Of a stretch of 64,000 bases of DNA, positions 1-501 are shown piece by piece. A program made the position numbers. Source of the stretch: Escherichia coli (lineage in GTDB: Bacteria > Pseudomonadota > Gammaproteobacteria > Enterobacterales > Enterobacteriaceae); assembly GCF_003334815.1 (NCBI RefSeq), contig NZ_QOWO01000011.1; one strand, written 5' to 3'. How positions within the stretch are numbered: position 1 is the stretch's first letter; each line of letters opens with the position of its first letter.

Positions 1-501
1 GGCATTTTCCAGCCGGGGCCGAGGCTCCCCACCGGCGCGGGCGTTTTTGTCCGGTAACTGCTGTAGGTGCGGGAGAGGATGAACGGCAGCGGGCCGGGCA
101 GGGCGATGTCGGTTTCACCGGGAAGGACCTTTGCACCGAGCAGGGGATTGACCGGATGGCCGGACGTCACTCCGCCGGGGCACACCGAACAGGCCACGCC
201 GGTGGGGGCACCAATACGTACCCCGGCTGAACCCTGAACAATGCTACCGCCATACTGCGTCATGTCACCCTGACGCGCCGCCGGTTTTCCGCTCATCGTA
301 AAATCCTTTTCTATTATTTTAATGACAGTATCTTCATACGAAAAAGCGAAGAAAAACTTGTGGTCACAATGAATTGAAGATTTTTAGGAATATATTTAGA
401 ACGTTACAAAAGAGAAGGTTCGGATAGGGTATTTAGAGAGGAATCAGGTGTGCTAGTGGCCCTTTGTTGATCGTTCACCAAAGGACCCAATAATAGACTC
501 A

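Follow-up and report, generated by a model that had tools for sequence, protein, structure and literature searches.

Introduction

Known since the 1980s, rhsB is a textbook gene of Escherichia coli and one of the 'rearrangement hot spots' that were described in strain K-12 in 1984. The closest solved relatives of the RhsB protein are all Rhs effectors of type VI secretion systems (T6SS), with Tse5 of Pseudomonas aeruginosa (8cp6, E 3.1e-127) as the best match and P. protegens RhsA (7q97, E 1.4e-85) also in this group. The site at which Tse5 is cleaved, Lys47/Pro48, has been mapped by N-terminal sequencing (PMC10684867). The 47-residue PAAR-like fragment cut off there is anchored in the cocoon by DUF6531, identified from the structure of Tse5 as its N-terminal plug, and this fragment is required for secretion (PMC10684867). 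In other Rhs proteins, an aspartyl-protease motif of the form DPxG-x18-DPxG cuts off the toxin (PMC10684867).

The toxin domain that concerns us here, DUF4329, is the Tox-JAB-2 family of Zhang et al. 2012, who noted its conserved E, H[ST]H, S and D residues and suggested a nuclease; they also paired it with an immunity family, Imm-NTF2-2 (PMC3482391). DUF4329 is named an RNase, second-hand, in two further papers (PMC7216683, PMC10469887). Archer et al. 2011 list the K-12 RhsB element as Rhs region 8, and K-12 itself is reported to be without a T6SS (PMC3032704). For the rhsA/B/C clade no delivery route has been demonstrated, and in EHEC the clade is unlinked to any vgrG island (PMC7216683).

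We followed up the edge of a 64-kb stretch of E. coli DNA, hereafter the window, where the original prediction had placed the N-terminus of an Rhs core protein, encoded on the minus strand at 1-296 and truncated by the edge. That reading is correct but ordinary. The fragment is the start of rhsB, an already known gene and the long-described Rhs toxin gene that follows nikR in K-12.

Results

The minus strand of window positions 1-296 holds a stop-free frame of 98 codons, which opens with an ATG at 296-294, has an AAGGA Shine-Dalgarno-like motif upstream at 304-308, and continues past the window edge with 2 bases over. Its translation is MSGKPAARQGDMTQYGGSIVQGSAGVRIG...GPGWKM. The NCBIfam model RHS_core (NF041261) matches the 98-residue fragment in register, over profile positions 1-98 of 1261, with an E value of 4.6e-61. 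Pfam DUF6531 matches residues 46-97 over model positions 1-47 of 74 (E 1.2e-12). The comparison with K-12 rhsB that had been proposed as a check found the fragment 100% identical to residues 1-98 of K-12 RhsB by tblastn, and the G+C content of this stretch is 66%. The open frame, the RHS_core match, the identity to K-12 and the MG1655 annotation at the same coordinates mark 1-296 as codons 1-98 of the 1411 codons of rhsB, far beyond chance.

A reading in which the fragment belongs to a non-Rhs gene, and resembles the family by chance or through a short domain, carries next to no probability. It can point to the mere 98 codons in view and to the bit score, since the fragment alone reaches 206.9 bits against a whole-protein cutoff of 2000 bits for RHS_core. 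The score lies below the cutoff, however, because the window edge cuts rhsB at codon 98, and the reading is refuted by the in-register match, by DNA identical to K-12 rhsB and by the same flanks. An RhsC-like gene at the nikR site was also considered and was dropped after direct comparison with MG1655, in which the window is identical to K-12 rhsB.

Over its 64 kb the window is collinear with MG1655 and 99.97% identical to it, with 16 mismatches, 4 of them in the first 13.5 kb and none in positions 1-498. The sole structural difference over this length is the IS1A element in yrhA of MG1655, which appears as a 777-bp gap that includes the target duplication. As the 16 mismatches are accompanied by the absence of IS1A, the source is a very close relative of K-12 and not MG1655 itself.

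The prediction that the Rhs element lies immediately downstream of nikR is borne out. The nikR gene occupies 499-900 on the same strand, as a 133-aa ORF annotated nikR in all relatives, and nikE, nikD, nikC, nikB and nikA continue after it, upstream of rhsB and on the same strand. Between nikR and rhsB lies a spacer of 202 bp (297-498, 35% G+C) that falls into two parts. The first, at 297-310 on the minus strand, is a ribosome-binding region common to the rhs paralogs, which includes the AAGGA motif; in rhsC-type paralogs of other genomes the match to the window persists to 310, 14 nt upstream of the ATG. The second, at 311-498 on the minus strand, is an AT-rich stretch specific to genomes with the RhsB element. 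Genomes without rhsB match the window only as far as the nikR stop codon, at positions 492-501.

How rhsB might be transcribed can be considered from the same spacer. A scan of positions 1-1000 found no sigma-70-like site on the minus strand of the spacer, the only minus-strand match lying inside coding region, and it found no terminator after nikR. RNA folding gives a 9+3-bp hairpin, GGGUCCUUUGGUGAACGAUCAACAAAGGGCC, at about 458-487 (minus strand), directly after the nikR stop. The hairpin is without a U-tract and is no canonical terminator, so transcription of nikR may read through towards rhsB. For the spacer as a whole the fold z-score of -0.79 does not suggest a structured RNA. The hairpin lies within the 311-498 stretch, which is confined to genomes with rhsB.

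The 98 visible residues can be compared closely with the N-terminus of Tse5. Residues 2-29 (SGKPAARQGDMTQYGGSIVQGSAGVRIG; window 210-293, minus strand) resemble a single PAAR-type repeat, the presumed contact with the VgrG spike. The alignments behind this assignment are sub-threshold: NCBIfam T6SS_PAAR_dom (NF033420) scores 16.4 bits against a cutoff of 124, over positions 68-94 of 94, and Pfam PAAR_motif (PF05488) gives an E value of 0.027. In canonical PAAR proteins, only the last repeat aligns with residues 2-29, at 67-93 of 4jiv_D and 71-98 of SalCis10. A canonical three-repeat PAAR spike protein was accordingly rejected, all matches being below threshold and covering one repeat, and we therefore term the piece 'PAAR-like', as was done for Tse5-NT (PMC10684867).

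Directly after this piece, RhsB residues 48-96 (PVNPLLGAKVLPGETDIALPG...) align with residues 1-45 of 8cp6_B, the beginning of Tse5-Shell, starting at Pro48 of Tse5 (PVNPMLGSKLLPEEVDFAL...). The dipeptide His47-Pro48 of RhsB (window 153-158, minus strand) would thus be the counterpart of the Tse5 self-cleavage site Lys47/Pro48, and the sequence that follows is PVNPLLGAK in RhsB and PVNPMLGSK in Tse5. Residues 46-97 (window 6-161, minus strand) open the DUF6531 domain, which plugs the Rhs cocoon at its N-terminal end. By homology, RhsB would share the N-terminal layout of Tse5, with His47/Pro48 at the corresponding position.

As the window ends at codon 98, everything downstream is read from relatives and not from the source genome. 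Five near-identical genomes supplied the extension: 52F4, MG1655, 26561, SCU-118 and VE-F5. All five have the same order: nikR, the 202-bp spacer, rhsB, yhhH, a yibA-like HEAT-repeat pseudogene stub, ISEc1 (yhhI, the 'H-repeat') and yhhJ. The upstream extension that had been proposed as a check, run on these genomes, thus recovers rhsB, its toxin tip, an immunity gene and ISEc1, and the Rhs reading stands. The rhsB gene is 4236 nt long, encodes 1411 aa and is annotated as intact in four of the five, the fifth (52F4) carrying a frameshift flag.

In the K-12 protein, RHS_core scores 2643.8 bits, above its 2000-bit cutoff, and YD repeats are detected by TIGR01643 with an E value of 1.4e-40. The Rhs_assc_core model (TIGR03696) matches residues 1170-1247, where DPIGL at 1221 and DPLGL at 1243 reproduce the DPxG-x18-DPxG spacing. 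What follows is a tip of 164 residues that matches DUF4329 (E 1.7e-39) and has HTH at residue 1343, then S-G-K-D. The yhhH gene overlaps the 3' end of rhsB by 29 nt. Its product matches Pfam Imm-NTF2-2 with an E value of 3.4e-26, while an NCBIfam search with YhhH returned no match. The core has a G+C content of 60-67% (about 62%), and the region of tip and immunity gene 32-45%, the classic Rhs pattern. In the relatives, then, the locus has the build of a polymorphic toxin, a C-terminal toxin of differing base composition followed by its cognate immunity gene. The original prediction was right to place both tip and immunity gene outside the window; that they could not be assessed goes too far, as by proxy they are DUF4329/Tox-JAB-2 and YhhH/Imm-NTF2-2.

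A blastn search with the 3' end of the core found no orphan tips or immunity cassettes downstream of rhsB, where only the yibA-like stub and ISEc1 follow; the core 3' end has no second copy there. Such tips are an optional feature of the family. Archer et al. 2011 likewise list rhsB with '0 tips' (PMC3032704).

Two further observations concern the history of the element. Compared with its closest relatives, K-12 rhsB has clustered changes, 3-4 of them within 10 bp (locus L002, 15425-15433 and 15604-15611), a pattern more suggestive of patchy gene conversion among rhs core paralogs than of point mutations that arose independently. The same module of Tox-JAB-2 tip and yhhH stands at a different locus in other strains, before an intact yibA; the K-12-type element retains only the yibA-like pseudogene stub (L002, 17900-18250). 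Such an arrangement suggests that the RhsB tip module may have been copied from an rhsA-type locus.

Positions 1-1500 of the window were compared by megablast with 5426 complete E. coli genomes. Every genome gave a match, and the top matches are annotated nikE, nikR and rhsB. A 700-bp probe that spans the 3' end of nikR, the spacer and the start of the rhs gene has a median of 3 matching places per genome. The nikR-rhs junction is present in 2109 of the 5426 genomes (about 39%), and 2025 of these 2109 (about 96%) have at least 80% of the K-12-type element (about 6.7-6.9 kb) in one place; the other 84 fall short of that 80%. Given the junction in the window, the population data therefore predict the usual element past the edge with a confidence of about 96%. 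The source genome would then continue as its relatives do.

The interval between nikR and yhhJ is a variable slot, which the RhsB element fills in about 39% of the genomes compared. Strain D7 has a hicAB toxin-antitoxin pair between nikR and yhhJ (locus L003, 6203-7011), and FDAARGOS_1255 has a sugar island with GntR, PTS, FGGY-kinase and aldolase genes (locus L004, 6203-12110).

It might be argued that rhsB of the source genome is a dead remnant, broken just past the edge by a frameshift, an insertion sequence or a deletion, which would leave the 5' stub as its sole meaningful part. In 52F4, the best match and the closest record over 25 kb, rhsB is one base short, at 4235 nt, and is flagged as frameshifted (locus L001, 13205-17439). 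IS1, IS903B and IS50R insertions lie in or beside the RhsB element in a few genomes, and the 84 junction-positive genomes with less than 80% of the element point the same way. Against this, the record of 52F4 is of shotgun type, and its single-base difference may have arisen in assembly. Three close relatives besides K-12 have a stop-free RhsB of 1411 aa with 3-7 residue changes from that of K-12, and the element is near-complete in about 96% of junction-positive genomes. We consider a remnant very unlikely, and expect rhsB to continue intact past the edge.

The original prediction also named a second toxin locus, yhhZ, about 35 kb away, and held that the window contains two unrelated polymorphic-toxin systems, Rhs and Hcp-ET. 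Both systems are indeed present. The yhhZ gene (35670-36848, minus strand; about 35.4 kb from the rhsB fragment) encodes an Hcp-toxin fusion, with matches to TIGR03344 (Hcp1, E 3.8e-34) and Pfam T6SS_HCP (E 2.5e-11). The Hcp1/TssD match covers residues 1-147 of 392, and the C-terminal toxin part has weak matches to HNH (residues 322-343, E 0.013) and to Col-Pyo_DNase (E 1.9). After yhhZ comes a gene of the YrhA family (35179-35673, minus strand; NF038335, E 1.7e-35), the presumed immunity gene. It overlaps yhhZ by 4 nt and is intact in the window, where it encodes 164 aa, whereas in MG1655 it is interrupted by IS1A (locus L008, 35308-36450). The arrangement of N-terminal Hcp domain, weakly matching C-terminal toxin part and immunity-type gene fits the Hcp-ET layout.

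Whether the two loci are unrelated depends on the level at which they are compared. With full-length RhsB as the tblastn query, the sole match in the window is positions 3-296; the rest of the 64 kb therefore contains no Rhs fragment, and at the level of sequence the two systems are unrelated as stated. In their logic they are not, because both use T6SS-derived carriers and belong to classes of T6SS cargo.

Discussion

Gene identity, domain content, motifs, element structure and distribution could be read directly, in the window or in its relatives, and they identify rhsB as the principal gene of the RhsB element, which occupies the space between nikR and yhhJ in K-12 and its relatives. We hold it very likely that this element carries a T6SS-type toxin-immunity pair that is stranded in a K-12-like host.

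We propose a model in which RhsB, 1411 aa long in the relatives, is a self-processing toxin container. Residues 1-47, with their one PAAR-type repeat, would dock on a VgrG spike; they would probably be cut off at His47/Pro48 and retained by the DUF6531 plug. The YD repeats, which extend to residue 1247, would form a closed cocoon. Within it, the DPIG-x18-DPLG protease would cut after Leu1247 and free the 164-residue, presumably active Tox-JAB-2 toxin. YhhH, as the matching NTF2-fold immunity protein, would protect the producer, and a T6SS would deliver the toxin into neighbouring bacteria.

In a K-12-like host this route probably comes to nothing. Apart from the Hcp-like yhhZ, the corresponding region of K-12 has no annotated vgrG or T6SS structural gene. 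Because K-12 has no T6SS, we read the locus in a K-12-like host as, most likely, a stranded and weakly expressed effector-immunity pair, which may well be silent. Its practical effects in such a host would be immunity against kin with the same tip and rearrangements through homologous recombination between the cores, 3.7 kb of repeated DNA.

An alternative is that the locus works without any secretion, as an internal module resembling a toxin-antitoxin pair. A start inside rhsB would then yield a C-terminal toxin fragment which, together with YhhH, modulates the growth of the producer. K-12 has no T6SS (PMC3032704), yet the element is nearly intact in 2025 of 5426 genomes, and the toxin and immunity frames overlap by the 29 nt noted above. 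There is also precedent: an rhs element of Salmonella Typhimurium is reported to have an internal role of this kind (PMC7043789), and K-12 RhsA was linked to a block of stationary-phase viability by Vlazny and Hill 1995 (cited in PMC4436062). On the other side, neither the window nor its relatives offer evidence on internal promoters for a toxin fragment. The PAAR-like repeat, plug, cocoon and protease motif are moreover kept stop-free in four of five relatives, although a toxin-antitoxin role alone needs none of them. We regard an internal module of this kind as unlikely. Taken more broadly, a role of RhsB in K-12-like strains without a T6SS that is independent of secretion, for instance as an internal Tox-JAB-2/YhhH pair, or that relies on export by some other system, is a minor possibility. 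The stranded T6SS-type effector-immunity pair remains our preferred reading.

The start of rhsB at the window's edge has little consequence beyond correct annotation and adds no new biology. On the role of orphan Rhs proteins in strains without a T6SS the window bears no more than K-12 itself does.

The nearest system to compare is the K-12 RhsB element itself (rhsB-yhhH-yhhI, b3482-b3484). Window DNA at 1-498 is identical to it, nikR is the neighbour in both, and yhhJ forms the other flank in the relatives; between K-12 RhsB and that of the closest relatives there are 3-7 residue differences. The rhsC, rhsA and rhsD paralogs are also alike at the start: rhsC of other genomes shares 97-99% identity with the first 296 nt and the 14 nt upstream. 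What sets the paralogs apart is their chromosomal site, the upstream spacer (311-498 being specific to the nikR locus), the C-terminal tip and the immunity gene.

Like RhsB, the YhhZ-type Hcp-ET is a polymorphic toxin whose delivery domain derives from a T6SS and whose immunity gene lies downstream, and both would be stranded in a K-12-like genome. The carriers differ, an Hcp tube protein in YhhZ and an Rhs cocoon with a PAAR-like tip in RhsB, as do the toxins, with a weak HNH/His-Me match in YhhZ and a JAB fold in RhsB. Both toxin loci of the window are thus T6SS-type cargo in a K-12 background reported to be without a T6SS.

Tse5 (PA2684; 8cp6) belongs to a host with a T6SS and is encoded beside its vgrG; rhsB is without a linked vgrG. 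The Tse5 toxin is a pore-former, in contrast to the Tox-JAB-2 domain of RhsB, and the residue before the cleavage position is Lys47 in Tse5 and His47 in RhsB, where the cut would fall at the corresponding place. The two proteins are otherwise alike in their short N-terminal piece, the P-V-N-P-x-L-G-x-K motif at residue 48, the DUF6531 plug, the YD cocoon and the DPxG...DPxG protease motif. The PAAR-like piece, the putative cleavage site and the start of the plug, all within the 98 residues visible in the window, have structurally defined counterparts in Tse5.
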